Shown piece after piece: positions 8,001-47,726 of a stretch of DNA of 64,000 nt. A model generated the notes under the pieces. The model saw only the letters and a program-made list of their open reading frames with translations, had not been told where the DNA came from and ran no database searches. This stretch comes from Candidatus Liptonbacteria bacterium (GTDB lineage: Bacteria > Patescibacteriota > Minisyncoccia > UBA6257 > JACOXY01): NCBI GenBank assembly GCA_016182095.1, contig JACOXY010000010.1, positions 334-64,333 on the forward strand, given 5' to 3'. Numbering within the stretch: position 1 is the stretch's first letter; each line of letters starts with the position of its first letter. Made by a program: the position numbers and the translations under genes.

Positions 8001-9351
8001 TGACCTTAAAAAAGCCAAGGAAAGGGCGCATATTTTGGAGGGACTCGCTAAGGCGCTATCGGTTATTGATAAAATAATCGCCACCATCAAGAAGTCGGGC
8101 GACAAAGAAGAGGCGCATAAAAATTTAATCAAGAATTTCAAGCTTACCGACATACAAGCGACGGCTATCCTCGAAATGCGCCTGCAAACTTTGGCGGCCT
8201 TAGAAAGGCAAAAGATTGAGGACGAGCTAAAGGAAAAACTGAAATTAATAAAAGATTTGGAGATATTGCTTAAGAGCCCCGAAAAAATAAAGGGGGTTAT
8301 TAAGGACGAACTCCAAGAAATGCGGGAAAAATTCGGTGACGAAAGAAGAACCAAAGTAGTGTCAGGCGGGCTGAAGGAGTTCAAAGAAGAAGACCTGGTA
8401 CCGGAAGAAGAAACCGTGATAACCCTTTCCGCGGGCGGGTACATAAAGAGAAGCAATCCGGGAGATTTTAAGGTACAAAAGCGGGGCGGCAAAGGGATAA
8501 TAGGAGGCGATGTCGGTGAAGAAGATTTTGTGCGCCACTTTGTGAGCGCCGTAACTCATGACAACATTTTATTCTTTACCACGAGCGGCAAGGTTTTCCA
8601 AACTAAAGTTTATGAAATACCTGCGGCTTCAAGAACATCAAAGGGAAAGGCCATACATAACTTTTTAGAAATCCCCACCTCCGAATATGTAAGCGCTATT
8701 ATTGCATATCCATCCAACACGCAAAATCAAGAAACCGCGGCATCGGGCTTCCTTGTTATGGTCACCGAAGGCGGCGTTATCAAAAAAACCAAAATTGCCG
8801 ACTTTGAAAATGTCAGAAAAAGCGGCATTATCGCCATTAAATTAAGAAGCGGCGACAAACTCAAATGGGTGGGGTTATCTGAAGCCGGGAACGACATTCT
8901 TATCGCCACCATGAACGGCCAGGCGATCAGATTCAAAGAAAAAGATTTGCGCCCCATGGGGAGGGCGGCAAGCGGCGTTACCGCCATAAGGTTAAAAAAG
9001 GGCGATAAAGTAAATGCCATGGAAATAATTAGAGGAGGAAAAGAGACGCGAGAAACACAGCTCCTCGCGGTTATGGCTAACGGTTACGCCAAGCGCACCC
9101 CCTTAAAAGAATATAAGGTGCAAAGGCGGGGCGGCTCCGGGATTAAAACAGCCAAAATAACGGCAAAGACCGGCTCCATAGTGGCGGCAAGAGTTATAAC
9201 CGAGGAAGAAGAACTTCTGGCTCTTTCAACTAAGGGCCAGATAATCAAGACCTTAATCAAGGATGTGCGCATAGCCGGCCGCGCCACGCAAGGAGTTAGA
9301 ATTATGTCGCTTAAAGCCGGAGATAAAGTGGCGGGGATAGTGTGTCTGTAG
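5053..9351 (+). CDS. gyrA: DNA gyrase subunit A, interrupted by two inteins. Extein total is ~824 aa.
   Basis: GyrA motifs are all present: [37 protein letters not shown]|..|[12 protein letters not shown]|..|[13 protein letters not shown], and the C-terminal beta-pinwheel repeats. Confidence 0.9.
5401..5880 (+). other. Mini-intein (160 aa, no endonuclease domain). Inserted between GQGNWG and SVDGD. Starts with Cys, ends His-Asn, with Ser at +1.
   Basis: CFTKDTEV...GIFVHN|S. The flanking exteins reconstitute the conserved GyrA GN(F/W)G-S(V/I)DGD motif. Confidence 0.7.
5917..7260 (+). other. Intein (448 aa) with a LAGLIDADG homing-endonuclease domain, at the canonical GyrA intein site (AAMRY|C...HN|TE). 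It lies only 12 extein residues after intein 1.
   Basis: CVTGDTLV...FINHN|TECR. LAGLIDADG-like blocks [13 protein letters not shown] and [12 protein letters not shown]. Same insertion point as the mycobacterial GyrA intein. Confidence 0.75.
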
Positions 9352-10805: not shown

Positions 10806-11699
10806 ATGAAAAAAACTTATCGCTTTAAATTAGCTCTTATTCTATTGGTTTTGGCAGTCATCCCAATTCTCGCAAACGCCCAATCCATCATAAATCCCGA
10901 CGAGTGTTCAGGAATTTTTGATTTCATCCCGGCCGATAAAGCCAGATACTGCACTCTGTGCGACGGACTGCAAGCGGTAAAAAATGGATTGCTACTGCTT
11001 TTGAAAATTGGTGTGGGGCTCGCCGTGATAATCATTGCTTACGGCGGAGTGCTTATTATGGTTTCGGGCGCAAGTCCCGGCAAATTTGAGCAAGGCAAAA
11101 AAGCGATTATTGGTTCCGTGGTTGGGGTCGCGATCGGCGCTATGGCATGGATCATCATCAATCAAATTTTCTTCATCTTTGTAACGCAAAGCGTAACTCT
11201 GCGTCCCTGGAACGATATCCCCTGTCCCCAAGAACCGCCGAGATTTGGAGCATCATTGGGAGGCACTGGCGGCCCTGGGGGCACTGGCGGCACAGGTGGA
11301 ACAGGCGGTACGGGCGGCACAGGAGTATCTGTAACTGACAACGCCAGAGTAAAAGCTCTATTAGACCCCAGTATTCGATATAACAATAATTCATGCCCAC
11401 CAACCTGTGTGGGGGGATTGCCACAAACCACCATAGATAAGTTAAACACGCTACAGGCGCAGTGCGGGTGCGTTGAAATTACCGGCGGCACAGAACCAGG
11501 CCACGCCTCTCATGGACCAGGCCTTGCTGTCGTTGATATTCGTTACAATCAAAGGGCAATTGATGGTTTGCGAAACATGGGCTACTCCGAAAGCAACTTT
11601 GGAACTGGCTACACCTGTGAACCGGCAGGAGGGAATACTGGCGGAACAAGGGTTCTGTGCAACAGCGGGCGCGCGGATAAAATGCATGTGGAGTTCTAG
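10806..11699 (+). CDS. VirB2/TrbC-like pilin paralog 1: signal peptide, hydrophobic helix pair, GGT-rich linker (GGTGGPGGTGGTGG...) and Cys-rich C-terminal domain.
   Basis: Signal peptide plus LLLLLKIGVGLAVIIIAYGGVLIMVSGASPGKFEQGKKAIIGSVVGVAIGAMAWIIINQIFFIF two-helix hairpin, typical of conjugative-pilin-type subunits. Confidence 0.45.
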   Translation: MKKTYRFKLALILLVLAVIPILANAQSIINPDECSGIFDFIPADKARYCTLCDGLQAVKNGLLLLLKIGVGLAVIIIAYGGVLIMVSGASPGKFEQGKKAIIGSVVGVAIGAMAWIIINQIFFIFVTQSVTLRPWNDIPCPQEPPRFGASLGGTGGPGGTGGTGGTGGTGGTGVSVTDNARVKALLDPSIRYNNNSCPPTCVGGLPQTTIDKLNTLQAQCGCVEITGGTEPGHASHGPGLAVVDIRYNQRAIDGLRNMGYSESNFGTGYTCEPAGGNTGGTRVLCNSGRADKMHVEF

Positions 11700-11994: not shown

Positions 11995-12513
11995 GTGATA
12001 AGTAATATAAATTTTAAAAACTTTCTTCTTTTGGCCGTTTTTTCTTCTTGGTTATTTTACGCGTTGTTTTTCAGCGCCGCACTGCAGGTGTTCGCCGCCT
12101 GCACCACCAATGCTGACGGAACTATAAGCTGTGACACACCAGGCGAGGTCCCGTCTGGCGCGACAAATTGCACATCAAATGCCACGGGGGGCGTCACCTG
12201 TGGCACTGCGGGGAGCACAGGGAATAATTCGGGTAGTCAAGGACAGGGCACAAGCAGGGTTACGATTGACCCCCCATTCTCGGGAACTCTCTTGCAGGTT
12301 TTGGAGCGCATTGCCAACTTTCTTATCTTAATCGGCGCGCCCATCGCCACCATCATGATTCTTTATGGTGCGTTTCAAATTTTGACAGCCGGCGCCAAAT
12401 CTGAACAGTTCACTAAAGGCAAAAATACTATTATTTACGCGGCGGTCGGCTACGGCATCATAATAATCGCCAGAGGAATCACGTCCATTGTGGTAGATCT
12501 GATTACGGGATGA
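11995..12513 (+). CDS. VirB2/TrbC-like pilin paralog 2 with Cys/Thr/Gly-rich N-terminal extracellular segment.
   Basis: Signal peptide, Cys-rich region, then helix pair LLQVLERIANFLILIGAPIATIMILYGAFQILTAGAKSEQFTKGKNTIIYAAVGYGIIIIARGI. Confidence 0.45.
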   Translation: MISNINFKNFLLLAVFSSWLFYALFFSAALQVFAACTTNADGTISCDTPGEVPSGATNCTSNATGGVTCGTAGSTGNNSGSQGQGTSRVTIDPPFSGTLLQVLERIANFLILIGAPIATIMILYGAFQILTAGAKSEQFTKGKNTIIYAAVGYGIIIIARGITSIVVDLITG

Positions 12514-12575: not shown

Positions 12576-12604
12576 TGTACATGACACATGACACATGACA
12601 CATG
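12576..12604 (+). repeat. Tandem heptanucleotide repeat (CATGACA)x4 overlapping the start codon of pilin paralog 3.
   Basis: catgacacatgacacatgacacatgaca read directly. Every unit carries an ATG and the 7-nt unit shifts frame, so copy-number change would move the start codon (candidate slipped-strand phase switch). Confidence 0.6.
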
Positions 12605-12928
12605 ACACAATTCAAATATCTCGCTCAATCCGCCGTTTCTCCTACCAATGACTTATCGGGAATCCCAATCGTGAACCTTGACTCCGATGATGTGTACAGA
12701 ATTTTGATAGATTTCGCGAATTGGATGTTTATCGTTTTTGTGCTCGTGTTTGTAGTGCTGGTTCTTTTCGCCGCTTTTAGATTCCTTACCGCTTCCGGAA
12801 ATGAAAGTAAAATTAAAGATGCTTATAAGGCATTTTGGTTTGCCATAGTGGCGCTAGTTATAGCTCTACTTGCGACAGGAATAGTAGCGTTAGTAAACCA
12901 GCTTATTTATGGGAGTAGGGGGGGGTAG
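12602..12928 (+). CDS. VirB2/TrbC-like pilin paralog 3 (108 aa). The gene ends in a G8 homopolymer.
   Basis: Helix pair MFIVFVLVFVVLVLFAAFRFLTASGNESKIKDAYKAFWFAIVALVIALLATGIVALV. The 3' end (tat ggg agt agg ggg ggg tag) contains the poly-G run at about 12918-12925. Confidence 0.45.
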   Translation: MTQFKYLAQSAVSPTNDLSGIPIVNLDSDDVYRILIDFANWMFIVFVLVFVVLVLFAAFRFLTASGNESKIKDAYKAFWFAIVALVIALLATGIVALVNQLIYGSRGG

Positions 12929-13155
12929 GCCAACCAGAATTAAGGTGGGCCTGCTATGACCCAGAAACAGGAAAGGCTATTGGCGGCGCGATTGGAGAAG
13001 CGGGATTGGATAACTGCAACGCCAATTGCCCAAGAGACTGCGCTTTATGTGAACCAGACGGAGGAGTCGATTGTGAAAATTAGAATTTGCTTAATATGTT
13101 ATAATATAGATAACATTAAACATGAAAGGTCGGATTTAATAATGAAATGTAAAAT

Positions 13156-13518
13156 ATGAAGAGTCTTAAAGCAAATATCGTGACGGGCCTTGCTGCTGGT
13201 TTAGCGGCGTTCCCGGCGCTTGCGGGCGCGCAGGTAGATAGTTTCGGCGCCATAGTCAATGTAATTCAAAGAGCGATTTCCTGGATATTCGCGCTATTTA
13301 TACTTTTGGCGGTTGTTTTCGTTCTTTACGCCGCTTTTAAGTATTTGACTTCAAGAGGCGATTCAGGAAAGGTTGGCGAAGCAAGCCAGGCGCTAATTTA
13401 CGCGGCAGTTGCAATCGGCGTGGCGCTCATTGCGGCGTCCATCCAATTCATAGTCGCGGAGCTCTTGGGATTAAATTCCGTAGAATTAGTAATTCCTGAC
13501 CCGTTTTTTATCCAATAA
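13156..13518 (+). CDS. VirB2/TrbC-like pilin paralog 4 (120 aa).
   Basis: Signal peptide (AFPALAGAQ), then ISWIFALFILLAVVFVLYAAFKYLTSRGDSGKVGEASQALIYAAVAIGVALIAASIQFIV. Confidence 0.45.
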   Translation: MKSLKANIVTGLAAGLAAFPALAGAQVDSFGAIVNVIQRAISWIFALFILLAVVFVLYAAFKYLTSRGDSGKVGEASQALIYAAVAIGVALIAASIQFIVAELLGLNSVELVIPDPFFIQ

Positions 13519-13545
13519 AAAACGCCCTGCGTCCCTAGGGCGAAG

Positions 13546-13590
13546 GCGTTACCGAGCGCATAACACATGTTATGTGCTCGGTTTTGTTTT
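13546..13590. terminator. Bidirectional intrinsic terminator (14-bp stem CCGAGCGCATAACA/TGTTATGTGCTCGG, loop CATG, T-tract) between convergent genes.
   Basis: Hairpin plus ttttgtttttat read in the sequence. Confidence 0.55.
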
Positions 13591-13598
13591 TATCGGTA

Positions 13599-14132
13599 TC
13601 AATATATCATCCGAAGATCCAGGGATCCCTCTCCCCAAACTTCCCAAGTCCCGACAATTAAGTCCAGCTTGTCTCCAGTTCCGAAAAACTTTGTGTAAAC
13701 TCCATTATATCGGACGCAAAGATATCTTGTATAGAACCAATTAATATCCCCGCCGGAAATCTTGATTCTTACGGGCTTTACCCCGGCTAAATTGGATGCA
13801 GAGCAAGCGCGCTCACCCATAGGCCCAATTTCTAACTTCACATTATCTCCGGTTGCCACATTGGCGATAAGACATCCAGTTTCAGAAAGATCGTGCACAA
13901 CATCCGATCCGGAAACGCTTGGACATGGCACTACCACTTTGATTACAGATTTTTCGGCATCCGTTCCAGAATTTTGCCTTCCATTACCGCATCCCTTTGC
14001 GATCAGAAGTAAGGAAACTCCGAGGAAAAGAAGTGATTTCCAGGCAAACCCAAGCCATGGAGCTAACTTCAGCCAAATTGCTCCCGGAGTTATTGGCTGT
14101 GTCCCCGAGCCGCTTCTACTTACGTCAGCCAT
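13599..14132 (-). CDS. Secreted/membrane-anchored hypothetical protein.
   Basis: ORF with N-terminal hydrophobic segment (LLFLGVSLLLIAKGC). No recognisable domain. Confidence 0.3.
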   Translation of the reverse strand: MADVSRSGSGTQPITPGAIWLKLAPWLGFAWKSLLFLGVSLLLIAKGCGNGRQNSGTDAEKSVIKVVVPCPSVSGSDVVHDLSETGCLIANVATGDNVKLEIGPMGERACSASNLAGVKPVRIKISGGDINWFYTRYLCVRYNGVYTKFFGTGDKLDLIVGTWEVWGEGSLDLRMIY

Positions 14133-15297
14133 TTTTTTTCACTCCTTCCTGTGTCTGCGGATTGCCTTTTATAGCCCTTGCTATCCCCTCAATTATTATC
14201 GGGATTGCATTCAGAAGGCCCTCCGAAGCAGAATATTCAGTGGCGTTGATAATTTTGGTAATTTTGCCTCTTTCTATATGGAGAATGTTCGCGGCAGTTT
14301 CTTTTTTAACTTCCAAATCCATGGCTGTTTCTTTTATTGCTCCTCTTGCAAATTTCATTTCTATTGCATCGGCTTCTTTTTCCTCTTGCTCAATCGCCTT
14401 TTTCTGAATGGCCTTTACCATTTCTGGGTCTGTCGGCATTACTTCACCGATATTTAGCCGGCAGAGAATAACTCCCAATCCGCGTTTCTTGTGCTCGCCG
14501 CGCCCATCTCTGGTTTCTTGAATGGCCTTACGGCGCTCCTCTATCTGCTGCTTCAGAGAAGCGAATTCTTCGTCTGTTAGCTTGTCAATAATCTTATCAA
14601 GCTTTTCCCACTCCGATGCTTCTTTGTTGTTGGGGTCTTCCCTGCCCCAGGCTTTAGCCTCGCATTCACTTGGCGACTTACGCGGCACGTTGGAGTACTT
14701 TAAGAGAACAGAGGTTGGCACAGGAAATGGCTCCCCAGAAGTTCCCAGACAAACCTGGGAAACGTCTTCCCTGTCTACAATCGCCCTAAAAAGCACCCAG
14801 GACATTTCTTCCTGAATACCCTGTGCCTCTCTATACTTGTGCGGACCCTTTTCTTTGGAACTCAAGAACTCCCTGCCGCGCTCCGTAATTATTTCATGAA
14901 TCTGGCCCTTAACTCCCGCTTCGCAGCCGCTTTCAATAAAACGTCTAATGGCTTCAGGATCTTTTTTATCCAAAAGGAGTGTCCACCCAAGCGATTGCTT
15001 CACCGGTGTTCCATCGGGCAGAATTACCTCTATTTCATTTTTATCGCCAAACTTGCCCGCGGGGATAGGAATAAATCCCCACAATAGCGGAAAGCCCAAA
15101 AAAAAGTGCATCCCGGGCTCAATCGGCTCTTTGTCATACTGCGGCCTACCCAAAAAAGTGGGCACGCCTATATATGGCGGACTTTTTTCGGAACCCGCAG
15201 GTATCTCTTGCCATCCTTGTAAAATGATGTAGGCAACTCCTTGAACCAAAAGCGCGATAATTCCCAATGATATTAAGAACCACGCCATGGATAACAT
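14125..15297 (-). CDS. Membrane-anchored protein with a possible SPFH/band-7-like domain followed by a long charged coiled-coil.
   Basis: N-terminal TM, PGMHFFLGFPLLWGFIPIP block reminiscent of SPFH, and a Lys/Glu-rich helical tail. Assignment is weak. Confidence 0.3.
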   Translation of the reverse strand: MLSMAWFLISLGIIALLVQGVAYIILQGWQEIPAGSEKSPPYIGVPTFLGRPQYDKEPIEPGMHFFLGFPLLWGFIPIPAGKFGDKNEIEVILPDGTPVKQSLGWTLLLDKKDPEAIRRFIESGCEAGVKGQIHEIITERGREFLSSKEKGPHKYREAQGIQEEMSWVLFRAIVDREDVSQVCLGTSGEPFPVPTSVLLKYSNVPRKSPSECEAKAWGREDPNNKEASEWEKLDKIIDKLTDEEFASLKQQIEERRKAIQETRDGRGEHKKRGLGVILCRLNIGEVMPTDPEMVKAIQKKAIEQEEKEADAIEMKFARGAIKETAMDLEVKKETAANILHIERGKITKIINATEYSASEGLLNAIPIIIEGIARAIKGNPQTQEGVKKNG

Positions 15298-15493
15298 TTT
15301 CCACCTGCCTTTCTTTCCGGCTGTATGTACTTGTCAGTTTCTGCGAGAATTCTACAATATAAATAAAGATTTGTCAAAAGCATTTTGGCTTGATATACTG
15401 GTCGTGGGTTTTGGCGCTCGGGTGGCGAAACCCCGTAAAAAATTGCTGCGCAATTTAACGGGGCAAGCCGGCAAGGCATATCTTGTGCAAAGC

Positions 15494-15577
15494 GCTGGGG
15501 TGGCGAAATGGCAGACGCACCAGCTTTAGGAGCTGGCGCCGCAAGGCGTGGAGGTTCAAATCCTCTCCCCAGCACCA
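15494..15577 (+). tRNA. tRNA-Leu (anticodon TAG). Class II tRNA with long variable arm and encoded CCA.
   Basis: Folded by hand: acceptor GCTGGGG/CCCCAGC, D-arm GCG..GG..CGC, anticodon stem CCAGC/GCTGG with loop TTTAGGA, variable arm CGCCGCAAGGCGT, T-arm GGAGG TTCAAAT CCTCT, discriminator A + CCA. Confidence 0.85.
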
Positions 15578-15796
15578 TTGAGGAAATTACAAGTTTTGAA
15601 GGTTCGCCTCGCTTCCTAGAGCGTCCGTGCGGACGCACGGAGTAGCTCGCTCGGCGACTAATTCGTATTGGATTTTCGGGGCAAAAACGAATTGGCGATT
15701 TTGAAAGAAGAAAAGAAAAATTTTTAATCATTGAATTCATAACTTTTAAGGTTTTAAGATAAGAAACGGCAGAGATGCTGATTTTTGGTTTTGAGC

Positions 15797-15825
15797 TTGA
15801 CATATGAGACCTATTATACTATGAT
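15797..15825 (+). promoter_or_regulatory. Near-consensus sigma70-type promoter (TTGACA - 17 nt - TATGAT) driving the GC-rich membrane-protein gene.
   Basis: Hexamers read directly. A strong AAGGAGG RBS lies 8 nt before the ATG at 15890. Confidence 0.45.
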
Positions 15826-15833
15826 TAAGCGAA

Positions 15834-15854
15834 ATCCAAGCATGATGCTTGGAT
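15834..15854 (+). promoter_or_regulatory. 21-bp palindrome ATCCAAGCA-TGA-TGCTTGGAT in the 5' UTR between the promoter and the RBS (operator or attenuator candidate).
   Basis: Perfect 9-bp arms read directly. Confidence 0.45.
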
Positions 15855-15889
15855 GAAATCAAGCAATTCCTTGAAAGGAGGATAGCGCA

Positions 15890-16519
15890 ATGCAAATGCT
15901 TCTGCTTTTCGGATTGCTGTTATTGAACTTCGGCATCAGTTGGTTCAACGCCTACTCGGTGGGCCGCTCGTGGGCGGACTCCAAGGCGATCGGTGGTTGG
16001 CCTCGCTTCATCACGTGGTGCGCGGCGATCATGTCGGCTGCTGGGTTCACCTGGTGTTATCTCATCGTGCTGGCGATGATCGCCGGAGCGACAGGCTTGC
16101 TCGCGCCCCAATACGTGCAGGCAGCTCTCGAAGTCAGCTACGTGATCATCATCTTGCCAGTTCTCGGTTCCGGCTTCGGAATCTGGATCGACTCCTTTAC
16201 CACTGCATGGCGGCGGCGCGACGCAGTGAGCATCGGAATCGCTGGCTGGAACACGTTCGCTCAAGTGCACAACACATACGAGGCCGTCAGCGCACTTCCC
16301 GATATATTCAAACATCTCGGCGATATCTTCGAGGGTGGCGGCAACGACGACGCGAAGGGTAAGGCTCTGCTTCTCGTGCTTCTGCTCGTGCTTCTCGCGC
16401 TGTGCGGCGGAGTGTTCACCACTGTCGCCATCGTGCGAACGACCGCTCGCAAGTACGCCCACGGCGTGCTCGGCAAGATGGGATCGGCTCGCGGCCGTCT
16501 GGCACGGGAGCGGGCGTAA
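15890..16519 (+). CDS. GC-rich (~60%) multi-pass membrane protein of unknown function on a compositional island downstream of tRNA-Leu.
   Basis: Strong RBS. 4-5 predicted TM helices. GC content far above flanking DNA. Followed by a textbook intrinsic terminator. Confidence 0.55.
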   Translation: MQMLLLFGLLLLNFGISWFNAYSVGRSWADSKAIGGWPRFITWCAAIMSAAGFTWCYLIVLAMIAGATGLLAPQYVQAALEVSYVIIILPVLGSGFGIWIDSFTTAWRRRDAVSIGIAGWNTFAQVHNTYEAVSALPDIFKHLGDIFEGGGNDDAKGKALLLVLLLVLLALCGGVFTTVAIVRTTARKYAHGVLGKMGSARGRLARERA

Positions 16520-16570
16520 CCTCCAAGTCGGGAGATGACCCCACGCGCAAAAGAAGTTTATCTCGTACTC

Positions 16571-16616
16571 GAGCCCCTTGCGAAACACGTTTTCGCTCGG
16601 GGCTCTTCTTTTTTCT
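16571..16616 (+). terminator. Intrinsic terminator: nested hairpin GAGCCCC..GCGAAA CACG TTTTCGC..GGGGCTC plus TTCTTTTTT.
   Basis: Read directly in the sequence. Confidence 0.6.
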
Positions 16617-16894
16617 AAAATCTCAATCATTGTAATTTTCATAAAAATTCTATATTATTTATGTATTCGTCTTGCGAATTCTGAATTGGTTGCCGCCAAA
16701 GAAAAATTGGAAATTGTTATCGGTGCGGCTTCGCCGCAAGTTCTGAATTTTTTTGCGGAGGGATTTCCTCGCCGCCGCAGGCGGCGAAATGCATTCGAAC
16801 TAATTCAAGAATACTGCACTTTGTGCGAGATGTTCTATTGTGGGGCGCTAGCGCCAACGCAAACATATTTGCTTGAGCCACAATCTAGACACAA

Positions 16895-17230
16895 ATGGAA
16901 AAACTTAAGAACAATACAGAACAAAAAGATGGCAAAGACATTACCGCTCTTTTATTGGAAAGCAATATTTCTCTAAACAAAATAATTCGCAACATGGAAA
17001 GCGTGGGCGAACTCCGAAGAGACACTCTTTTCAGCGTCAATGCAGACCTTACGGGAATTTCTGATGTAGTGAAAATGAGACACATCACCACTGGCCTCAA
17101 ATCTGCCCTCGAGAAATATGGTGAATATTTTGCGGATGTTCAAATCATTATTAGGCGTAGCCAGATGAACGATGCCGCAGTCGCCAACGCAGTCTATTCT
17201 TTTGCATCCAAGTATAAGATTATTGATTAG
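16895..17230 (+). CDS. Hypothetical protein (111 aa).
   Basis: ORF only. Confidence 0.25.
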   Translation: MEKLKNNTEQKDGKDITALLLESNISLNKIIRNMESVGELRRDTLFSVNADLTGISDVVKMRHITTGLKSALEKYGEYFADVQIIIRRSQMNDAAVANAVYSFASKYKIID

Positions 17231-17251
17231 AGCGCCTCAAAATAATTGGCG

Positions 17252-18199
17252 CTATCTTCTCTTCCCATGGAAAGCTTTATGCACTTCTTTAAGGCCCTTG
17301 TTCGTGATGTGAGTATAAACTTGGGTGGTTGCGATATTCGCGTGCCCCAAAAGTTCCTGCACCGAGCGCAAGTCGGCTCCGTTTGTTAAGAGGTCGGTCG
17401 CGAAAAAATGCCTCAACATATGCGGAGTTATGCGATCTTGAACGCCAATTTGTTTGGCATAACCGTCAACCATTCTTTGGACCGCGCGAGATGTAATTCG
17501 CCCAATTACTTTTTCGCGCCTATTTGACCTATTAGACTCATTAGACTGGTGGGGCTTATTATTTTTATTCAGCGCCGGGTTGCCAGCGGCAAAACTTACA
17601 AACATCGCCTCTTCCGCGTCTTCCCTGCGATCAAGATAATTTTTAATTGCTTTTTTTGCTACATCCGCAAAAAAAACCACGCGAATTTTGTCTCCCTTGC
17701 CGCGCACACTTAACTCTCCGCGGTCTAAATTAATATAGCGGTTCAGGGCACACAATTCTGATAAGCGCAGCCCGGTAGAAAATAGTGTTTCCAAAATCGC
17801 CTTATCCCGCAAACCGCGAAGCGTTCCCGTGTCCGGCGCCCCCAAAAGAGATTTCAAATCCCGCTCGTCAGGAATATCAATTTGCCGCGATGGAGTCTTA
17901 GGAAGCTCAATTTTATCGGGAGATAAAACTTTTAAATCACGCTTGATTAAATACTTCAAAAAATTGCGAAGCGCTATTATATAATAAGCCTGGGTATTTT
18001 TTTTAATTTCTCTTCTCGCGAGCCAAAGTCTGAAGTTTCTGATTAGCTCTGCGTCTATATCTCTTACCGATTTTAGCTTGGACCACCCTAAAAAGATTTT
18101 TAGATATCGCCCATAATTTTCCTGTGTTTTTATGGATCGTCCTTTTTCAATCTCTAAATAATCCAGATATTCGTTTAGGTATTTCTCCGCTTCGTTCAT
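17252..18199 (-). CDS. xerC: Tyrosine site-specific recombinase, XerC/XerD family. Carries an in-frame N/K/S-rich low-complexity insertion.
   Basis: N-terminal SAM-like domain (YLDYLEIEKGRSIKTQENYGRYLKIF) and catalytic domain with R..HxxR..Y (HMLRHFFATDLL, LLGHANIATTQVYTH). Confidence 0.7.
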   Translation of the reverse strand: MNEAEKYLNEYLDYLEIEKGRSIKTQENYGRYLKIFLGWSKLKSVRDIDAELIRNFRLWLARREIKKNTQAYYIIALRNFLKYLIKRDLKVLSPDKIELPKTPSRQIDIPDERDLKSLLGAPDTGTLRGLRDKAILETLFSTGLRLSELCALNRYINLDRGELSVRGKGDKIRVVFFADVAKKAIKNYLDRREDAEEAMFVSFAAGNPALNKNNKPHQSNESNRSNRREKVIGRITSRAVQRMVDGYAKQIGVQDRITPHMLRHFFATDLLTNGADLRSVQELLGHANIATTQVYTHITNKGLKEVHKAFHGKRR

Positions 18200-18348
18200 A
18201 AGCTAATTATATCACAACATTGTGCGACAATTCATTTTAACCCCCAGCTATTGCGGAAAACTTGAATCTATGATAGAATGATTGAAAATTAAGTCGGGCT
18301 TTTTTATTTCGTAATTTCGTACTAATTTCGTAATTCGTTAGAGAAATC

Positions 18349-18615
18349 ATGTTAACTACTCGCAAAAAGCAGAATGTCATAAAAGAAATCCAGATACACG
18401 ATGCCGATACCGGCTCGGCAAACGTTCAAGTGGGACTCTTGAGCCGCCGGATTGATGAACTCTCGGGCCACCTAAAACAACACCCTAAAGATAATCATTC
18501 GAGGAGGGGTCTTTTGAAGATGGTCAATAAAAGAAGGAAGCTCCTAAAATATCTGGAAAAAAACGATGAAAAGAGTTATAATTCAATTATTAAAAAATTA
18601 GGCCTAAAAAAATAG
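18349..18615 (+). CDS. rpsO: 30S ribosomal protein S15.
   Basis: TGSANVQVGLLSRRIDELSGHLKQHPKDNHSRRGLLKMVNKRRKLLKYL. Confidence 0.85.
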   Translation: MLTTRKKQNVIKEIQIHDADTGSANVQVGLLSRRIDELSGHLKQHPKDNHSRRGLLKMVNKRRKLLKYLEKNDEKSYNSIIKKLGLKK

Positions 18616-18753
18616 CATGCGAACAGCGCTTAGCGAACGCGCCCATGCGAACTAAAAAATATACCGCGGACAATACGAATTGTATGCGAATGTTGCGAAT
18701 CAAGATTCGCAGTGTTCGCATGTGATTCGTTGGTTCGCATTACCAAACGAATG

Positions 18754-19296
18754 TCTACTTCTCAATACAAAGATCAGCGGGTCGGGATATTTATTGATAT
18801 TCAAAACCTCTACCACTCTGCCAAAAATCTTTACCGTGGCAGAGTAAATTACAAGGAGCTTGTAAAAAACCTCGTCTATGGCAGAAAACTGATAAGGACA
18901 ATGGCCTATGTCGTGAAAAGCGAAGGGCTGCTTGACGAGGAGGCCGAAGTCGCTCGCGAGAAAGAGGGCAAGGAGGCCGCCTTTTTTGAGGCGCTTGAGA
19001 ATGCCGGAATTGAATTAAGGGTAAAAGACATTCAAGTCTATCCTGGCGGCATGAAAAAGGCCGACTGGGATGTGGGGCTCGCGATTGATGCCGTAAGAAT
19101 GGCGCCGATGCTTGACGTCATAATTTTAGTCACCGGAGACGGGGACTTTATCCCACTGGTTGAATATCTGAAGTGGGGCATGGGCCGACAAGTGGAAGTC
19201 GCCGCCTTTGATAAAAGTACGTCCGCTAAACTCAAGGAGGTGGCCGATCATTTCATAAGCATTGATAAGATACCAAAAATCATTATAAAAAAGTAA
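18754..19296 (+). CDS. NYN-domain (LabA-like) protein. Likely true start MSTSQYK, internal to track ORF 18712..19296.
   Basis: VGIFIDIQNLYHSAKNL...ILVTGDGDFIPLVEYL matches the NYN/LabA family. Confidence 0.55.
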   Translation, partial: STSQYKDQRVGIFIDIQNLYHSAKNLYRGRVNYKELVKNLVYGRKLIRTMAYVVKSEGLLDEEAEVAREKEGKEAAFFEALENAGIELRVKDIQVYPGGMKKADWDVGLAIDAVRMAPMLDVIILVTGDGDFIPLVEYLKWGMGRQVEVAAFDKSTSAKLKEVADHFISIDKIPKIIIKK

Positions 19297-19344
19297 CTTT
19301 GATTATAATTTTAATTTTTAATTATTAATTTCAAATTTAAATTC

Positions 19345-21471
19345 ATGGACAAAGAAAATAAAATATATTCAATTGAAATTGGCGGTCGTGATTTAGTATT
19401 AGAATTCCCCGGTTACGCCGAACAGGCAAATTCTTCGGTGCTTGCCAAATACGGCGATACGGTAGTACACGTGGCAGTCGTGATGAGCAAGCACGAGCAA
19501 GATGGGCTGGACTATTTCCCGCTAACCGTTGATTATGAAGAAAAATTTTACGCCGCGGGTAAGATTTTGGGCAGCCGCTTTGTGCGGAGAGAGGGGAGGC
19601 CGTCGGATGAAGCAATACTGTCTGCCCGCTTGATTGATAGGGCGTTGCGTCCGCTCTTCAACCAAAAGATGAGGCGCGACGTGCAAGTTACTACCACCGT
19701 TCTTTCATTTGACGAAGAAAACGATCCCGATGAAATAGCCTTAATTGCCGCATCAGCCGCGCTAGTACAATCGGATATTCCATTCAAAGGACCGGTCGCT
19801 GGCTTAAAAATTGCGAGGATCGGAAATGAGCTTTCCGTAAACCCAAAAATGTCTCTCCTTAAAAATGGCGAGCATCAATTTGAAATTTTCACGTCCGGAA
19901 CCGTTGATAAAATAAATATGGTTGAAATGGAGGGATTAGACGCCAAAGAGGAAGATCTTATTGCCGCTTTTGAGTTGGCCCAAAAAGAAATTAATCGTCT
20001 AAATAAAATACAGGATGAAATTCGGGAAAAAATCGGGAAAGAGAAGGCGGAAGTGTATTTGGCAGAAACAGACGAGGTTTTAAGAGCCGCGGTAAAAGAA
20101 TTCTTAAAAAATAAGCTTGAGGCGGCGGTTTATACAACTGAAAAGATTGACCGACAAAGCAAGATGAACGTATTAAAACATGAAATGAAAGAATTTTTGG
20201 AGGGCAATAAATATGATGAGAAAGCGGTTAACTCCGCAGAAGAATTTTTTGAAGACGAGATAAACAACCTCATACACGAAAAGGTGTTAAAAGAAAACAA
20301 GAGACCTGACGGCCGGGCGACCGACGAACTACGCGCGCTGAATTCCAGAGTCGGGCTTTTTGAAAGAACTCACGGTTCGGCGCTATTTACGCGAGGCAAT
20401 ACCCGGTCGCTCGCGATAACAACCCTGGGGCCGCCAAGTTCTCATAAGCTCGTTGAAACCATGGAGTCAACGGAGAAAAAGAGATTCATGCTTCATTATA
20501 ATTTCCCGAAATATTCAACCGGGGAAACTGGAATGTCGCGCGGTCCGGGCAGAAGAGAAATCGGTCATGGAGCGCTGGCCGAAAAAGCCGTAAGGCGCCT
20601 AATCCCCACCGCCGACATTTTTCCTTACACCATCAGAGTTGTTTCCGAAATCATGTCTTCCAATGGGTCGTCCTCAATGGCAACCGTTTGCGGCACAGTG
20701 CTTTCTTTGATGGATGCCGGGGTGCCGATTAAAAAACCAGCGGCTGGCATAGCGATGGGGCTCATGGTAAATCAAAAATTAGAGGATAAAAATCAAGAAA
20801 TAGAATACAAAGTTCTAACTGACATTCAGGGACCGGAAGATCACCACGGAGATATGGATTTCAAAGTAGCCGGGACTGCGGACGGCGTAAACGCCATTCA
20901 GCTGGACGTAAAGATAGATGGACTAAACACCAAAATGATAAAAGACACTTTAGAACAGGCAAGAAAAGCGCGCCTTCAGATATTGGATAATATGCTCGCC
21001 GCCCTAAAGGAGCCTCGCAAAGAACTCTCTAAATACGCTCCGTCAATCATAACTATAAAAATTGACCCCGAAAAAATAGGAGAGGTTATCGGCCCTGGCG
21101 GGAAGATGATTAATGGGATCATTGAAAGAACCGGCGCGATTGCTATTGATATAGAGGAAGACGGCACAGTATTTATAACAGCCCCCAATCAGGAATCTGG
21201 AAGCATGGCCCTGGAAGCGGTGAAGAGTGTTGTAAGAGAATTTAAGGCCGGCGATATAGTTGAGGGCAAAGTAATTAAAATACTGGACTTTGGAGCTATT
21301 GTGGACTTGGGCGGCGGCAAAGACGGCATGATACACGTATCGGAGCTTAAACAGGGCTTTGTTAAAAAAGTTGAGGACGTTGTGCGTTTGGGAGATTTTG
21401 TAAGAGCCAAGGTTATAAACGTAGAAAACGGCAAGACCGGACTATCAATAAAACAGTTGGGGAGTAGATGA
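19345..21471 (+). CDS. pnp: Polyribonucleotide nucleotidyltransferase (PNPase).
   Basis: Two RNase PH domains, KH and S1 domain (GDIVEGKVIKILDFGAIVDL). 708 aa. Confidence 0.9.
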   Translation: MDKENKIYSIEIGGRDLVLEFPGYAEQANSSVLAKYGDTVVHVAVVMSKHEQDGLDYFPLTVDYEEKFYAAGKILGSRFVRREGRPSDEAILSARLIDRALRPLFNQKMRRDVQVTTTVLSFDEENDPDEIALIAASAALVQSDIPFKGPVAGLKIARIGNELSVNPKMSLLKNGEHQFEIFTSGTVDKINMVEMEGLDAKEEDLIAAFELAQKEINRLNKIQDEIREKIGKEKAEVYLAETDEVLRAAVKEFLKNKLEAAVYTTEKIDRQSKMNVLKHEMKEFLEGNKYDEKAVNSAEEFFEDEINNLIHEKVLKENKRPDGRATDELRALNSRVGLFERTHGSALFTRGNTRSLAITTLGPPSSHKLVETMESTEKKRFMLHYNFPKYSTGETGMSRGPGRREIGHGALAEKAVRRLIPTADIFPYTIRVVSEIMSSNGSSSMATVCGTVLSLMDAGVPIKKPAAGIAMGLMVNQKLEDKNQEIEYKVLTDIQGPEDHHGDMDFKVAGTADGVNAIQLDVKIDGLNTKMIKDTLEQARKARLQILDNMLAALKEPRKELSKYAPSIITIKIDPEKIGEVIGPGGKMINGIIERTGAIAIDIEEDGTVFITAPNQESGSMALEAVKSVVREFKAGDIVEGKVIKILDFGAIVDLGGGKDGMIHVSELKQGFVKKVEDVVRLGDFVRAKVINVENGKTGLSIKQLGSR

Positions 21472-23246: not shown

Positions 23247-24779
23247 ATGGACTCCTTTTCAAAAGTCTATGCCGCCGAACTTGATGGCATAGATGCCAAG
23301 TTAATAGATGTGGAAATCGACATTAATGTTGGGCTCCACGCATTCAACATTGTCGGCCTCGCGGATAAGGCTCTTTCCGAAGCCAAAGAGCGGGTGAACT
23401 CCGCTCTTAAAAATTCTGATTTAAAACCGCCCAATAAAGAAAACAGGAAAATTATCGTAAACCTGGCGCCGGCAGACGTTAAAAAAGCCGGCTCTCAATA
23501 CGATCTCGCCATAGCCATAGGTTATGCCCTGGCAACCAAGCAAATAAGGAACTTTGAAACGCGTGATAAGATTTTTGTGGGAGAACTGGCGCTAAATGGA
23601 GAATTACGGCCGATAAGCGGCGGATTAAACATCTCCGAAATGGCAGCCAAGTCAAATTTTAAATACGTTTTTTTGCCGAAAGAGAACGCGGAAGAGGCAG
23701 CAGTTATAAGTGAAATAAAAGTAATACCGGCGACATCATTAAAAGAAATAGTCGGCTTTCTTGAAAATCCCGAAAGAATTAGCGGTTTACAAACGAAGCT
23801 CCGTGGCAGGAAAAGATCAGACCATCACATTAAATTTGGAGATATAAAAGGACAGGGGAACGCCAAAAGGGCAATGGCCATAGCAGCCGCCGGCGGGCAT
23901 AACCTCCTGATGATTGGCCCCCCCGGATCCGGGAAGAGCTTAATGGCCGAAGCCATGATATCAATCCTGCCAAACTTGGCGTTGGAAGAGGCCATAGAAA
24001 TAACAAAGATTTACAGCGCCGCAGGACTTAATAAGGAAGGCCTGATGCAAAAAAGGCCTTTCAGGGCGCCGCACCACACGGCTTCAGCAATATCAATAAT
24101 AGGCGGCGGGAGTAACCCAAGGCCCGGAGAAATAAGCTTGGCACATCGTGGGATCTTATTTCTAGACGAACTGCCGGAGTTTCCAAGAAATATTCTTGAG
24201 TCCTTACGCCAACCTCTGGAGTCCGGCAAGGTGCATATTTCGCGCGCCAAGGCAAGCTTGATATTCCCCGCGCGATTTACGCTTATCGCCGCCATGAATC
24301 CTTGTCCATGCGGATACTTTGGAGACACTGACATAGAGTGCCGTTGTACCGCGAATGAAGTATTTAGATATCAGAAAAAAATATCGGGACCCCTCTTAGA
24401 CAGGATAGATATGCAAATCACAGTTCCCAGAATTAAAACTGATGAGCTTTTGGGGAAAAACGATGGCGACAATAGTCCAGATATAGCGGCAACCATCGAA
24501 AGGGCAAGAGGGGCTCAAGCTATGCGATTCAAGAATTGGAAAAGGCCGATCTACGCCAATTCAGAAATGTCTTCAAAAGAGTGCGACGCAAACATTAATC
24601 TTGCAAATGATGCCGAAAACTTTCTAAAGAAGCTTTTGGAAGAAAATTTCATATCAGCCAGGGGTTATTATAGAATCCTGAAAACGGCCCGCACTATTGC
24701 AGACCTCGCGGAGTCAGACTCTGTAAAAAAAGAACACCTTGCGGAGGCGTTTGGATACCGCATTAGACAAAAGGAATAG
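23247..24779 (+). CDS. comM: YifB/ComM-family Mg-chelatase-like AAA+ ATPase (competence-associated helicase family).
   Basis: Lon-like N-terminal domain, Walker A GPPGSGKS, ILFLDELPEF, C-terminal Mg-chelatase domain. Confidence 0.8.
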   Translation: MDSFSKVYAAELDGIDAKLIDVEIDINVGLHAFNIVGLADKALSEAKERVNSALKNSDLKPPNKENRKIIVNLAPADVKKAGSQYDLAIAIGYALATKQIRNFETRDKIFVGELALNGELRPISGGLNISEMAAKSNFKYVFLPKENAEEAAVISEIKVIPATSLKEIVGFLENPERISGLQTKLRGRKRSDHHIKFGDIKGQGNAKRAMAIAAAGGHNLLMIGPPGSGKSLMAEAMISILPNLALEEAIEITKIYSAAGLNKEGLMQKRPFRAPHHTASAISIIGGGSNPRPGEISLAHRGILFLDELPEFPRNILESLRQPLESGKVHISRAKASLIFPARFTLIAAMNPCPCGYFGDTDIECRCTANEVFRYQKKISGPLLDRIDMQITVPRIKTDELLGKNDGDNSPDIAATIERARGAQAMRFKNWKRPIYANSEMSSKECDANINLANDAENFLKKLLEENFISARGYYRILKTARTIADLAESDSVKKEHLAEAFGYRIRQKE

Positions 24780-46042: not shown

Positions 46043-47437
46043 ATGGAAAATTTAGAGCAACAAGAACTAACAAAAATTTGGCAGTCGATTTTAAATGAGA
46101 TAGAGCTGCAGTTGCCTAAGGCAAGTTTTGTAACTTGGCTTAAAAACAGCGAGTTGGTTGATAAAAAAGATGGCGTTGCTTACATTGCTTTACCCAACAG
46201 TTTTACAAAGGCCTGGGTGGAAAATAAATACAATAAGATTATTTTAGGCAACATAAGACTGCTGGATGATTCAACTAAAAACATAAAATATTTGGTTAAA
46301 AGCGCCAAATCTTCCGACTTTCCCAAAGACGCCGATAAAAATAACGGCTCAAAAACCGAAACATCCGAAAAACAGCTTGCTTTCCCGGAATTTAAAATTG
46401 ATCCCGAAACCAACCTTAATCCCAAGTATACTTTCGCGACTTACGTAGTTGGCGGTTCAAATGAACTTGCCTATGCCGCCGCCCAGGGGGTTGTTGGCGA
46501 CATCGGCAAAAAATACAATCCTCTTTTTATTTATGGCGGGGTTGGACTCGGCAAAACGCACCTGATGCAATCTGTTGGCAATGAAATAAAAAATGCTTAC
46601 AAAAACCAGGTAAGGGTAAAATACGTAAGCTCGGAAAAGTTCACCAGTGACGTAATAGCCGCGATAAGAGCCAAGCGCGCCGAAGACGTTAAGAAAAAAT
46701 ATCGAGACGTTGATGTTTTGATAATAGACGACATCCAATTCATAGCCGGCAAAGAAAAAACAGAAGAGGAATTTTTTAATACTTTTAATGCTCTTTACGA
46801 GGTTAATAAACAGATTGTTATATCTTCCGATAGGCCGCCAAAAGCCATCCCTGTTTTAGAAGAGAGGCTTCGCTCCCGTTTTGAGGGCGGAATGGTGGTG
46901 GACATCAGCCCCCCGGATTACGAAACAAGAACGGCAATTATAAAAACCAAGCTGCAGCAAAAAAACAAGGAATTGCCCGACTCCGTTATTGACGTTATAG
47001 CCGCAAAAGTAAGAAAAAACATAAGGGAAATAGAGGGCATAGTAAATGTCGTTCTTTTCTATAAAGAACAAAAAAGGGCCGACCTTACGCCGCAGGCAGT
47101 TGAGGAAATTATTAGAAAAAATACCCAACACACCCCGGAAAATATAACTCCGAATCACATTGTAAGAGCTACGGCCAACTTCTTCCAAATTCCTATTGAT
47201 GACTTAATGGGTAAGTGCCGCAGGAAAGAATTTGTAAGGCCTCGGCAGGTTGCAATATATCTTTTGCGCGACATGCTTGATTTATCATATCCGCACATAG
47301 GAGACATTGTGGGGAAAAAGGACCACACCACCGCCATTCACGCCTATGAAAAGATCAATAAAGAATTAAACAAAAACAGCGATTTAAATCAAAAAATAAT
47401 TTTAATCAAAGATATTATTAATAAAAGCAGTGAATAA
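46043..47437 (+). CDS. dnaA: Chromosomal replication initiator DnaA.
   Basis: AAA+ Walker A GGVGLGKTHL, box VII, C-terminal DNA-binding domain (FVRPRQVAIYL...IGDIVGKKDHTTAIHA). Confidence 0.9.
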   Translation: MENLEQQELTKIWQSILNEIELQLPKASFVTWLKNSELVDKKDGVAYIALPNSFTKAWVENKYNKIILGNIRLLDDSTKNIKYLVKSAKSSDFPKDADKNNGSKTETSEKQLAFPEFKIDPETNLNPKYTFATYVVGGSNELAYAAAQGVVGDIGKKYNPLFIYGGVGLGKTHLMQSVGNEIKNAYKNQVRVKYVSSEKFTSDVIAAIRAKRAEDVKKKYRDVDVLIIDDIQFIAGKEKTEEEFFNTFNALYEVNKQIVISSDRPPKAIPVLEERLRSRFEGGMVVDISPPDYETRTAIIKTKLQQKNKELPDSVIDVIAAKVRKNIREIEGIVNVVLFYKEQKRADLTPQAVEEIIRKNTQHTPENITPNHIVRATANFFQIPIDDLMGKCRRKEFVRPRQVAIYLLRDMLDLSYPHIGDIVGKKDHTTAIHAYEKINKELNKNSDLNQKIILIKDIINKSSE

Positions 47438-47657
47438 TAAGTTTATAAGTTTGTTTGTTTATTGATTAATGAGTTTAAAACTTGATATTAATTTTTGTGA
47501 ATAAAACACATAAATTAAAACAGTAAAATACTTATCTTTTTTTATTACGGAAAAATAGACACAATATTAACAGATTAAAAAAATAATCCCGCAATAAAAT
47601 AATTAATTGGTAATAATTTTTATAGGAATAATTTTTATTTTTTTGCTTTTTGAATAA

Positions 47658-47675
47658 TTATCCACATTTCCACAT
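47658..47675 (+). promoter_or_regulatory. Perfect DnaA box TTATCCACA plus adjacent ATTTCCACA in the dnaA-dnaN intergenic region. A further box (TGTGGATAA) lies at 48843-48851 after dnaN.
   Basis: Read directly. Confidence 0.55.
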
Positions 47676-47726
47676 ACTAATAATAACTGCAGTAAGTTTT
47701 ATTATATTTAATTTATAAAACATATT

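Follow-up and report, generated by a model that had tools for sequence, protein, structure and literature searches.

A probable decayed serine-recombinase islet with phage-type cargo behind a tRNA-Leu gene of Candidatus Liptonbacteria

Bacteria of the Candidate Phyla Radiation (CPR) have tiny genomes with few recognized mobile elements, and how they acquire genes is poorly understood. The described systems closest to the locus reported here are tRNA-linked genomic islands, the gene cassettes of integrons, modules in which passenger genes lie between the ends of autonomous elements or between recombinase sites (mobile insertion cassettes, miniature inverted-repeat transposable elements, and the pdif modules of Acinetobacter), phage morons and anti-defense genes, and large serine recombinase elements. 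We analyzed a 64-kb stretch of a Candidatus Liptonbacteria contig from a metagenome-assembled genome (CPR/Parcubacteria; overall GC 43.7%), referred to here as the window. In it, a GC-rich open reading frame (ORF) for a 209-amino-acid (aa) membrane protein, the cargo, stands between tRNA-Leu(TAG) and the gene of an Xer-type tyrosine recombinase (Table 1). A sequence-only reading had seen here the tRNA, cargo and integrase of a genomic islet, and every component that it listed lies where it had placed it: the tRNA, the 60% GC gene, a consensus promoter, a palindrome, a strong ribosome-binding site, a terminator, and the recombinase gene on the opposite strand. Our data support tRNA-linked insertion and foreign cargo, but they indicate that the Xer-type recombinase is not the integrase and that the signature of the islet is instead a set of serine recombinase gene fragments.

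We propose, with a probability of roughly 0.6, that window positions 15578-16819 (about 1.24 kb) are a decayed, non-autonomous serine-recombinase islet with phage-derived cargo, and a member of a family of very small integrative elements in groundwater Parcubacteria. We refer to it as decayed and non-autonomous because the recombinase ORF has been lost while both ends have been kept. The proposal draws on sequence comparison, which establishes the family, its boundaries, a shared expression scaffold, the recombinase fragments, the distribution of the family and the foreign composition of the cargo. The islet concept holds, and the enzyme family, the site logic and the reusable scaffold are unlike those of classic islands, integrons and Xer-dependent modules.

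As in tRNA-linked islands, a tRNA 3' end marks the exact start of the insert. The tRNA, the sole one in the window by both ARAGORN and Rfam, ends in ...CAGCAC-CA, which forms the left boundary, and the left arm of the element, referred to here as module T, begins right after the CCA. On the right side, homology to all loci ends at the last base of an end motif, E. Non-coding parts of the element recur in at least 120 metagenome contigs, mostly from groundwater (loci are given L numbers here), always behind a tRNA or tRNA-like end that reads ...GCAC. We located the terminal 21-mer, ACTAATTCAAGWATWCTGCAC, in at least 120 metagenome contigs and in no IMG/VR contig, and neither the end motif nor module T nor the spacer turned up in scans of IMG/VR viral contigs. 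We found a recurrent order, namely tRNA ...GCAC-CA, module T, boxA, a gene, X (GCCGCCAAAGAAAAA...), a palindromic core and E (...CTGCAC). The leading tRNA is one for Leu (tag, caa, gag, taa), Gly, Tyr, Val (two anticodons), Lys, Arg or Ile. A further 14 loci have GCACCA at the end of a tRNA right before module T, and these tRNAs represent at least nine other anticodons. Units also stand behind the E end of another unit, with 21 distinct E|T junctions, and module T follows tRNA or E ends at 35 distinct junctions. A match to boxA arose in 0 of 100 shuffles. Sharing differs by part of the cassette: 44 loci share module T, 22 the stretch from boxA to the -35 element, 2 the promoter and 5' untranslated region (UTR), 1 the ORF, 21 the terminator and spacer, and at least 120 the segment from X through the core to E, while 16820-16894 matches no locus. 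A search of the literature on these motifs and on CPR cassettes and repeats found nothing relevant.

Only GCAC is common to both boundaries (15572-15575 and 16816-16819), and the junction deduced by comparison is GCAC|CA; empty-site tRNAs end in ...GCAC followed by unrelated bases. The sequence-only reading had looked to a direct repeat of the tRNA 3' end as an attachment (att) site, and no long repeat of it (typically at least 15 bp) occurs in 13000-21000. The family differs from tRNA-linked islands in that many tRNAs are used and share only GCAC, rather than there being a 15-50 bp repeat of one tRNA. It also differs in its tiny size (1.2-2.7 kb), in its large serine recombinase in place of a tyrosine integrase, and in a far end that imitates the tRNA end, which makes tandem additions possible. 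As in those islands, full copies have the recombinase gene beside the tRNA and decayed copies lose it.

Several observations concern the tRNA itself. The empty-site tRNA-Leu(tag) genes in L029, L026, L033 and L024 do not encode CCA, and every tRNA flanked by module T reads GCACCA; the element appears, from this comparison, to supply the CA of the encoded CCA end. Inside the tRNA leader, 15414-15430 is a 17-nucleotide (nt) copy (16/17 identical) of the tRNA-Leu 5' end at 15492-15508; lying 78 nt upstream of the tRNA and bracketing only 61 nt, it was set aside as an att repeat. An Rfam search of 15300-17400 found the tRNA alone, and a weak match to the sX8 RNA family (22.9 bits vs a gathering score of 50) was rejected.

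In relatives, where the sequence-only reading had called for a comparison, the cargo gene is absent from the equivalent site, and the contents of the gap between xer and the tRNA vary. The closest cargo homolog (90% aa identity) is in L001 (assembly GCA_964515255.1), and the nucleotide homology of L001 and L002 with the window spans 15703-16819 only, with different genes downstream. Among members of the cassette family, L001 and L002 alone have this ORF. The syntenic locus L014 (comM ... xer ... tRNA-Leu) shares only non-coding pieces with the window. Window positions 15647-15729 recur there at 93% identity, two boxA copies bracket a different GC-rich promoter-gene-terminator unit, and the last ~110 nt of the cassette are also present, abutting xer. 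In L031 (Wolfebacteria), the last 160 nt of the cassette are shared at 84% identity.

Table 1. Coordinates of the islet, its parts and neighboring features (window positions unless a locus is named)
Feature	Position	Strand	Evidence or remark
tRNA-Leu(TAG)	15494..15577	+	ARAGORN; Rfam tRNA 57 bits
Module T, left arm	15578..15702	+	blastn: 44 loci, up to 100% over 56 nt
boxA (GAAAGAAGAAAAGAAAAATTTTTAATC)	15703..15729	+	single copy in window; 27 nt
Scaffold 5' half	15730..15889	+	layout common to 20 cassettes with unrelated ORFs
Small hairpin and T-run	15767-15792	+	within scaffold 5' half
Promoter TTGACA-17-TATGAT	15797-15825 (-35 15797-15802; -10 15820-15825)	+	11/12 consensus positions
5' UTR palindrome ATCCAAGCAT-g-ATGCTTGGAT	15834-15854	+	perfect 10+10
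Shine-Dalgarno AAGGAGG	15875-15881	+	8 nt ahead of ATG
Cargo ORF, 209-aa five-helix membrane protein (predicted), phrog_37671	15890..16519	+	profile match, GC, AlphaFold2, hydropathy
Scaffold 3' half: intrinsic terminator and AT-rich spacer	16561..16689	+	73-82% identity to 21 loci with other cargo
X1, palindromic core, end motif E	16690..16819 (X1 16692-16718)	+	right boundary, ends in GCAC
E (ACTAATTCAAGAATACTGCAC)	16799-16819	+	exact 21-mer in at least 120 metagenome contigs
Orphan 111-aa ORF, outside cassette	16895..17230	+	GC 0.40, native-like
Xer-type tyrosine recombinase	17252..18199	-	Pfam Phage_integrase 3.6e-37 and Phage_int_SAM_1
Sister cassettes with Tad4, Mu Gam-like or haem-oxygenase-like cargo	L178 (3296-4511), L193 (2547-3687), L149, L248		

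We found that the motifs flanking the cargo are pieces of a recombinase gene. As in large serine recombinase elements, related loci hold a three-domain recombinase whose gene adjoins the attachment junction; the window holds fragments only. In seven loci (L137, L204, L246, L223, L175, L230 and L186), an ORF that starts MKYILYARKSTEEDDRQVLSIEAQLVELQEYAAKEKLEIV... comes after boxA, which lies about 25 nt upstream of its ATG and is the 5' untranslated leader of the intact gene. The protein begins MKYILYARKST..., where the S of ARKST would be the catalytic serine, and at full length (about 470 aa) contains Resolvase, Recombinase and Zn_ribbon_recom domains, the arrangement of a large serine recombinase; these domains score 1e-20, 2e-13 and 3e-8, respectively, in L137 and L246. 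More than 300 aa of the recombinase are kept in 10 of 124 loci, and its 3' end abuts a real tRNA in six (L137, L204, L246, L243, L172 and L209). Complete islands of 2.3-2.7 kb (L137, L243 and L246) consist of tRNA, recombinase unit, cassette and E, in that order. X1 corresponds to the recombinase codons AAKEKLEIV, with the 27-nt copy in the window matching the coding sequence of L137 and L223, while a second X motif corresponds to the codons TAKEPG and a "linker" to part of the recombinase C-terminal region (IGSNHVL). A tblastn search with the L137 recombinase matched 15548-15703 on the minus strand (aa 455-495, 50% identity, E-value 2.8e-7), and module T read on the minus strand matches the final ~40 codons of the recombinase frame. 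A reading in which T, boxA, X and the linker made up a tRNA trailer and sites specific to the cassettes was given up, since boxA, X and the linker proved to be the leader and coding pieces of the recombinase.

The right end of the cassette is a palindromic structure. Among 54 distinct sequences of the core and E (16706-16821), 94.7% of pair positions were paired, compared to 28-46% in slid controls. An 11-bp stem, bulged once on either side, closes the core, which also contains two internal hairpins and a variable center. Covariation in it is limited, loop triplets are found in both complements, and the RNAalifold consensus is weak (-1.9 kcal/mol). For the copy in the window, RNA folding does not surpass that of shuffled sequences (z = -1.15), while DNA folding is modestly stronger than theirs (z = -2.4). 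A minimal cassette end of 36 nt, ACTTGGAATT-GTTACT-AATTCAAGAATACTGCACCA, lies at 951-986 of L138; it is missing the ~80-nt variable center and consists of a pair of inverted arms, 8-9 bp each, around a 6-nt spacer, and it may represent the ancestral or functional core of the site.

Such an end may be comparable with the attC end of integron cassettes, also an imperfect palindrome that resembles a recombination site, in which the arms are conserved, some bases bulge out and the center varies. Further likenesses are that the units carry single genes of diverse, mostly unknown functions and form tandem arrays on a fixed chromosomal platform. In contrast to integrons, IntI is absent, a tRNA end takes the place of attI as the platform, and the associated enzyme is a serine recombinase; these cassettes bring their own promoter and terminator while integron cassettes are mostly promoterless, and cassettes here also occur inverted. 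An integron reading was rejected on the integrase score (the integron-integrase model TIGR02249 gives the Xer-type recombinase 117 bits against a cutoff of 265), on the cassette promoters, and on the orientation of xer, which is convergent with, not divergent from, the cassette. Mobile insertion cassettes, miniature inverted-repeat transposable elements and Acinetobacter pdif modules resemble the family in that passenger genes lie between autonomous-element ends or recombinase sites, in a unit without a recombinase, and in that 13 loci have inverted E pairs about 1 kb apart. Here, however, the ends come from a serine-recombinase element, not from an insertion-sequence transposase element or Xer sites, and the ends of the window copy are unlike each other (T and boxA on the left; X, core and E on the right) and do not form a simple inverted pair. 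A 32-nt inverted repeat that flanks the gene in L001 had suggested a simple transposon bounded by such repeats, which was rejected: the window lacks the left copy, and the repeat is part of the recombinase-derived mosaic.

We found 56 distinct units from boxA to E, which encode 47 protein families. Twenty-five of their ORFs are more than 5 points above host GC (GC at third codon positions, GC3, 0.6-0.86), and most of these start 110-430 nt past boxA. Lining up 20 such units revealed a common layout around unrelated, mostly GC-rich ORFs, in the order small hairpin and T-run, GGGCTTGACT-N17-TATGCTATATT, stem-loop, CACnTTGAAAGGAGG, 6-10 nt, and ATG. Past the stop codon, a conserved terminator (GAGCCCCTTGCrGA...TCTGCTTGGGGCTC) is followed by an AT-rich spacer. 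The window matches L146 over 15703-15802 (93% over 97 nt) and then diverges, and the cargo of L146 differs. Promoter-like matches in the region number 14 compared to 8.3 expected, which makes the motif alone weak evidence; the promoter call is supported because it is conserved across homologous cassettes. The terminator hairpin (16571-16605) with its T-run folds at -23.2 kcal/mol (z = -5.9) and was overlooked by a simple terminator scan. Our data indicate that all four expression signals (promoter, palindrome, ribosome-binding site and terminator) are parts of the vehicle, in a scaffold that unrelated ORFs share, and not of the cargo gene, to which the sequence-only reading had assigned them as its own. 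Within the segment of about 750 bp that it took to be foreign, only about 15890-16560, the ORF region, is GC-rich and unshared; the four signals lie in AT-rich sequence common to other cassettes.

The palindrome, which had been considered operator-like, folds as RNA at -12.1 kcal/mol (z = -3.2). Its stems covary with pairing kept, reading CCAAGC/GCTTGG in the window, CAAGTC/GGCTTG in L170, CGAGTC/GGCTCG in L181 and CTGGAC/GTCCAG in L235. Because structure is kept while sequence covaries among cassettes, the palindrome is best interpreted as a 5'-terminal mRNA stem-loop that belongs to the vehicle and is conserved in structure, rather than a sequence-specific operator of the cargo, and it would act in mRNA stability or translation control.

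Other cargo of the same scaffold is informative as well. Sister cassettes encode a Mu Gam-like nuclease inhibitor (E-value 3.6e-36), the Thoeris inhibitor Tad4 (4.8e-31), a haem-oxygenase-like protein and small membrane proteins, and the cassette pool seems enriched in phage-conflict genes. Phage morons and anti-defense genes are similar in being self-contained promoter-gene-terminator units, and the likeness extends to the cargo family, which occurs in phage accessory regions, and to the Mu Gam and Tad4 of the sister cassettes. Unlike in morons, the promoter and terminator here belong to a bacterial-side scaffold, conserved and used again with unrelated ORFs, which is absent from IMG/VR contigs.

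The cargo protein is 100% identical to NCBI protein HYT12_01500 and matches phrog_37671, an uncharacterized phage protein family whose function is not known, over its full length (E-value 3.5e-46; residues 4-186 vs profile positions 2-184 of 196). By tblastn, family members were found in 10 GenBank phages at 37-40% identity, including the Burkholderia jumbo phages BcepSauron and BcepSaruman, the Pseudomonas phages Dolphis and UAntarctica, and the Aeromonas phage ST4. A further 37 IMG/VR contigs, many of them 70-600 kb, carry a homolog. An exhaustive profile search yielded only 627 cluster representatives in 1.84 billion proteins, nearly all about 200 aa. In the phages Dolphis, phiT5282EW, BcepSauron and ST4 and in a 72-kb phage-like contig, the homologs sit among small genes of early or accessory type: in Dolphis, where it is gp122, and in ST4 the homolog is two genes from a phosphoesterase, and a copy with 65% identity lies three genes away from that of Acb3 in the 72-kb contig. 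Our data support the phage derivation that the sequence-only reading had considered. They do not support its suggestion of a holin-like protein: no annotated lysis gene stands beside the homologs in these five phage neighborhoods, where most genes are annotated only as hypothetical, and the protein has 209 aa and, in the model, five long helices.

The cargo ORF has a GC content of 60%, compared to 43.7% for the window, and a GC3 of 0.743, compared to 0.43-0.52 for seven neighboring genes (including xer, rpsO, NYN, pnp and gyrA). Over 37 viral and CPR loci, phage copies agree in GC content with the flanking sequence (mean difference +0.009), while CPR copies (in the window, L001, L131, L009 and L011) are 9-16 points richer than their flanks. 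The cargo gene contexts differ among all genomes examined, and the gene is absent from the xer site in all 80 xer loci described below. Since GC3 is anomalous and the gene is absent from the equivalent site in relatives, our data indicate that the cargo gene is phage-type, horizontally acquired and compositionally foreign in CPR genomes. The accessory (early or anti-defense) gene pool of GC-rich phages best explains its source.

A multi-pass membrane protein had been expected, and both lines of structural evidence agree. Hydropathy reveals about four strongly hydrophobic segments, and the AlphaFold2 model contains five long helices (predicted local distance difference test score, pLDDT, 95.2; predicted template modeling score, pTM, 0.87). 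Hydropathy and charge together predict an N-terminus outside and a C-terminus inside. The basic parts are a loop, WRRRD, and a C-terminal tail with 8 Lys and Arg compared to 1 Asp or Glu. Across 48 homologs, 12 alignment columns are invariant, among them the intrahelical polar residues N13, S17, N20, N121 and T177. A five-helix inner-membrane protein is the best explanation of these predictions. It is a guess, and a doubtful one, that the protein acts in phage-host conflict, for example by exclusion of or interference with infection, or as a small polar channel.

Taken together, we propose the following mechanism. Full-length members stand directly after the ...GCAC end of a tRNA, with the 3' end of the serine recombinase gene abutting the tRNA. 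Beside the recombinase there is at least one single-gene cassette ending in the palindromic core and ...ACTGCAC, which would imitate the tRNA 3' end so that further units can land behind it. The window copy has lost the recombinase ORF and kept T (flank), boxA (leader), nine N-terminal codons (X1) and the core with E. Between boxA and X1, an AT-rich scaffold made up of an insulating hairpin, a sigma-70-type promoter, a 5' stem-loop, a Shine-Dalgarno sequence and a terminator would drive the foreign GC-rich ORF. We infer that the serine recombinase performs the insertion at GCAC with E as a surrogate tRNA end, and that the window copy is movable in trans.

We also considered that no dedicated recombinase is involved, in which case the flanks would be intergenic repeats and the gene would be swapped by DNA uptake and homologous recombination, as in a "replacement island". 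CPR bacteria carry DNA-uptake machinery, and the window contains comM (23247-24779) and T4SS-pilin-like genes. The flanks are 77-100% identical where the proteins of the organisms are only about 50-65% identical, which makes such recombination feasible, and it would fit that identical scaffolds hold different cargo (L146 vs the window) and that native-looking genes, too, occur between boxA and the X-core-E segment. It would nevertheless leave unexplained the sharp, recurrent junction right after tRNA ...GCAC at many tRNAs, and it does not account for the repeats being pieces of a serine recombinase gene whose intact form always abuts a tRNA, nor for the first capture of ORFs just past the scaffold Shine-Dalgarno sequence. 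We consider this explanation unlikely.

The serine-recombinase islet has its own difficulties, and the following points weigh against it. There is no intact serine recombinase in the 64-kb window, and mobility by such an enzyme would follow from association only. For the internal mosaic (T, boxA, linker, X1, X2, core and E) we found no consistent attP/attB or simple attL/attR model: inverted copies of T flank the recombinase gene, E also forms inverted pairs, and there are L|boxA joints and a second X motif. Instead of true coding sequence, module T may represent an att arm whose frame simply runs to the tRNA without a stop, and the GCAC shared by both boundaries is too short to prove a crossover site. 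The metagenome loci were fetched by the exact 21-mer, which biases the sample to conserved copies. Some boxA...E intervals ("class I") hold native-looking genes, for instance an aspartate carbamoyltransferase-like ORF recognized by eye, and the repeats may be spreading or recombining independently of cargo capture. As for cargo function, the protein had no match in Pfam, NCBIfam or PADLOC (E-value <= 0.01) and none in a profile search against PDB sequences, and all Foldseek matches against PDB and BFVD had E-values above 0.1 and template modeling scores below 0.5.

Much less probable, in our view, is that the islet was integrated by the adjacent Xer-type recombinase, or is a cassette exploiting host Xer in the style of integrative mobile elements exploiting Xer (IMEX) or the Acinetobacter pdif modules. 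Xer exploitation by integrase-less elements is established. The recombinase lies about 430 nt from the cassette end, this end is an imperfect palindrome whose minimal arms in L138, with their 6-nt spacer, have the geometry of a tyrosine-recombinase core site, and many cassettes are flanked by inverted end copies, like pdif modules. The main ground for rejecting this explanation is that, of about 60 long metagenome loci, only 3 include xer within the DNA retrieved. Furthermore, the cassette family is found after at least 10 other tRNA species, the flanks are serine recombinase gene fragments, there is neither a dif-like 11-6-11 site nor a long att repeat, and xer is kept beside rpsO-NYN-pnp and tRNA-Leu(tag) even with gaps of 1-9 nt between xer and the tRNA.

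This last point comes from a scan of 185,579 species genomes for relatives of the Xer-type recombinase, in which 80 loci were kept (47-65% identity). In more than 20 of the 80, as in the window, rpsO-NYN-pnp (often with comM) lies immediately upstream of xer, and in 12 of 30 loci scanned for tRNAs, tRNA-Leu(tag) lies just downstream; the gene order comM-pnp-NYN-rpsO-xer-tRNA-Leu(tag) is conserved across Parcubacteria. The gap between xer and the tRNA is ~1 nt (L030), 9 nt (L029), 90, 200 or 229 nt, and these empty sites contain no T, boxA or E; elsewhere the gap is 0.6-1.9 kb with unrelated small genes. Because synteny is kept while gap size and contents vary among relatives, our data indicate that the linkage of xer and tRNA-Leu is ancestral and that insertions recur in the interval, a hot spot for them. 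Homology in the shared element ends at 16819, which leaves xer outside, and xer is in place in cassette-free relatives, and for these reasons it appears to be a housekeeping neighbor rather than the integrase of the islet. It resembles the XerC, XerD and XerA resolvases in its SAM-like N-terminal domain and catalytic domain, in its best profile matches, in being single-copy (the one tyrosine recombinase within the window), and in its synteny with ribosomal and RNA-turnover genes. It differs in falling below the equivalog cutoffs of all three NCBIfam models (XerC 232/335, XerD 230/330 and XerA 218.6/220 bits), as is expected for a divergent CPR lineage, in a low-complexity insertion of ~25-30 aa (at about residues 205-235), and in that no dif site was identified.

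A native gene, with a GC content set by membrane-protein amino acids or mRNA selection and ordinary gene signals as motifs, is essentially refuted: although Ala/Gly/Leu/Trp-rich membrane proteins raise GC at codon positions 1 and 2 and homologs in several other hosts are likewise somewhat GC-richer than their flanks, GC3 is 0.74 vs about 0.45, the gene is missing at the site in all 80 xer loci, its contexts differ per genome, and phage copies are compositionally at home.

Additional features of the xer/tRNA-Leu(tag) interval and of the window were observed. The ~430-nt stretch between the cassette end and xer is lineage-specific, as the cassette end in L014 adjoins xer directly. Its orphan 111-aa ORF has no match in Pfam, PHROG or NCBIfam and no homolog in the 80 xer loci. 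In L014, L024, L025, L027 and L033, unrelated inserts occupy the interval, among them a 98-aa ORF that is Cys-rich and GC-rich, a membrane protein of 215 aa, a 179-aa GC-rich protein (GC 0.63 vs 0.51; coiled-coil by eye) and a 115-aa protein that is 23S-rRNA-intervening-sequence-like by eye. A second foreign single-gene unit occupies 1100-2170 of the window on the minus strand (ORF from about 2011 to 1146; ~288 aa, charged and coiled-coil-like by eye; GC 0.63, GC3 0.79). It has its own -10-like box, a ribosome-binding site (AAAAGGAGG) and a terminator-like hairpin, has no match in Pfam, NCBIfam or PADLOC, and lacks the T/boxA/E scaffold; an S1-domain gene and a 23S-rRNA-intervening-sequence (bAvd-like) protein gene (2232-2630) lie upstream of it. 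The gyrA gene (5053-9351) contains an intein with a LAGLIDADG homing-endonuclease domain (Intein_splicing 1.6e-33; LAGLIDADG_3 3.7e-20). Four small membrane proteins match Pfam T4SS_pilin (10806-11699, 11995-12513, 12602-12928 and 13156-13518), and between this cluster and the tRNA lies an SPFH/Band7-like gene of 390 aa (14125-15297). GC content is unusually low at 47000-49000 (28-30% compared to about 44% for the window).

For the locus as first read, the lesson is one of caution: the tyrosine recombinase close by is a conserved bystander, and the textbook promoter, palindrome and terminator are those of the vehicle, not of the gene. If our explanation holds, tRNA-linked islets of 1-3 kb with exchangeable single-gene cassettes would be a concrete route of gene gain in CPR bacteria, and a large serine recombinase that accepts many tRNA ends and leaves a reusable site would be of interest for the mining of genome-engineering enzymes. 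We suggest, tentatively, that groundwater Parcubacteria may have a dedicated gene-capture platform, in which a large serine recombinase would target the GCAC of nearly any tRNA gene, self-renewing landing sites would let arrays lengthen, and the scaffold would receive, just past its Shine-Dalgarno sequence, GC-rich foreign ORFs that mostly come from phages infecting other bacteria (Gam, Tad4 and this membrane protein). If true, this platform would be an analogue of the integron built on a different recombinase family, and through it episymbionts might gain phage counter-defense tools against their own defense systems or those of their hosts.

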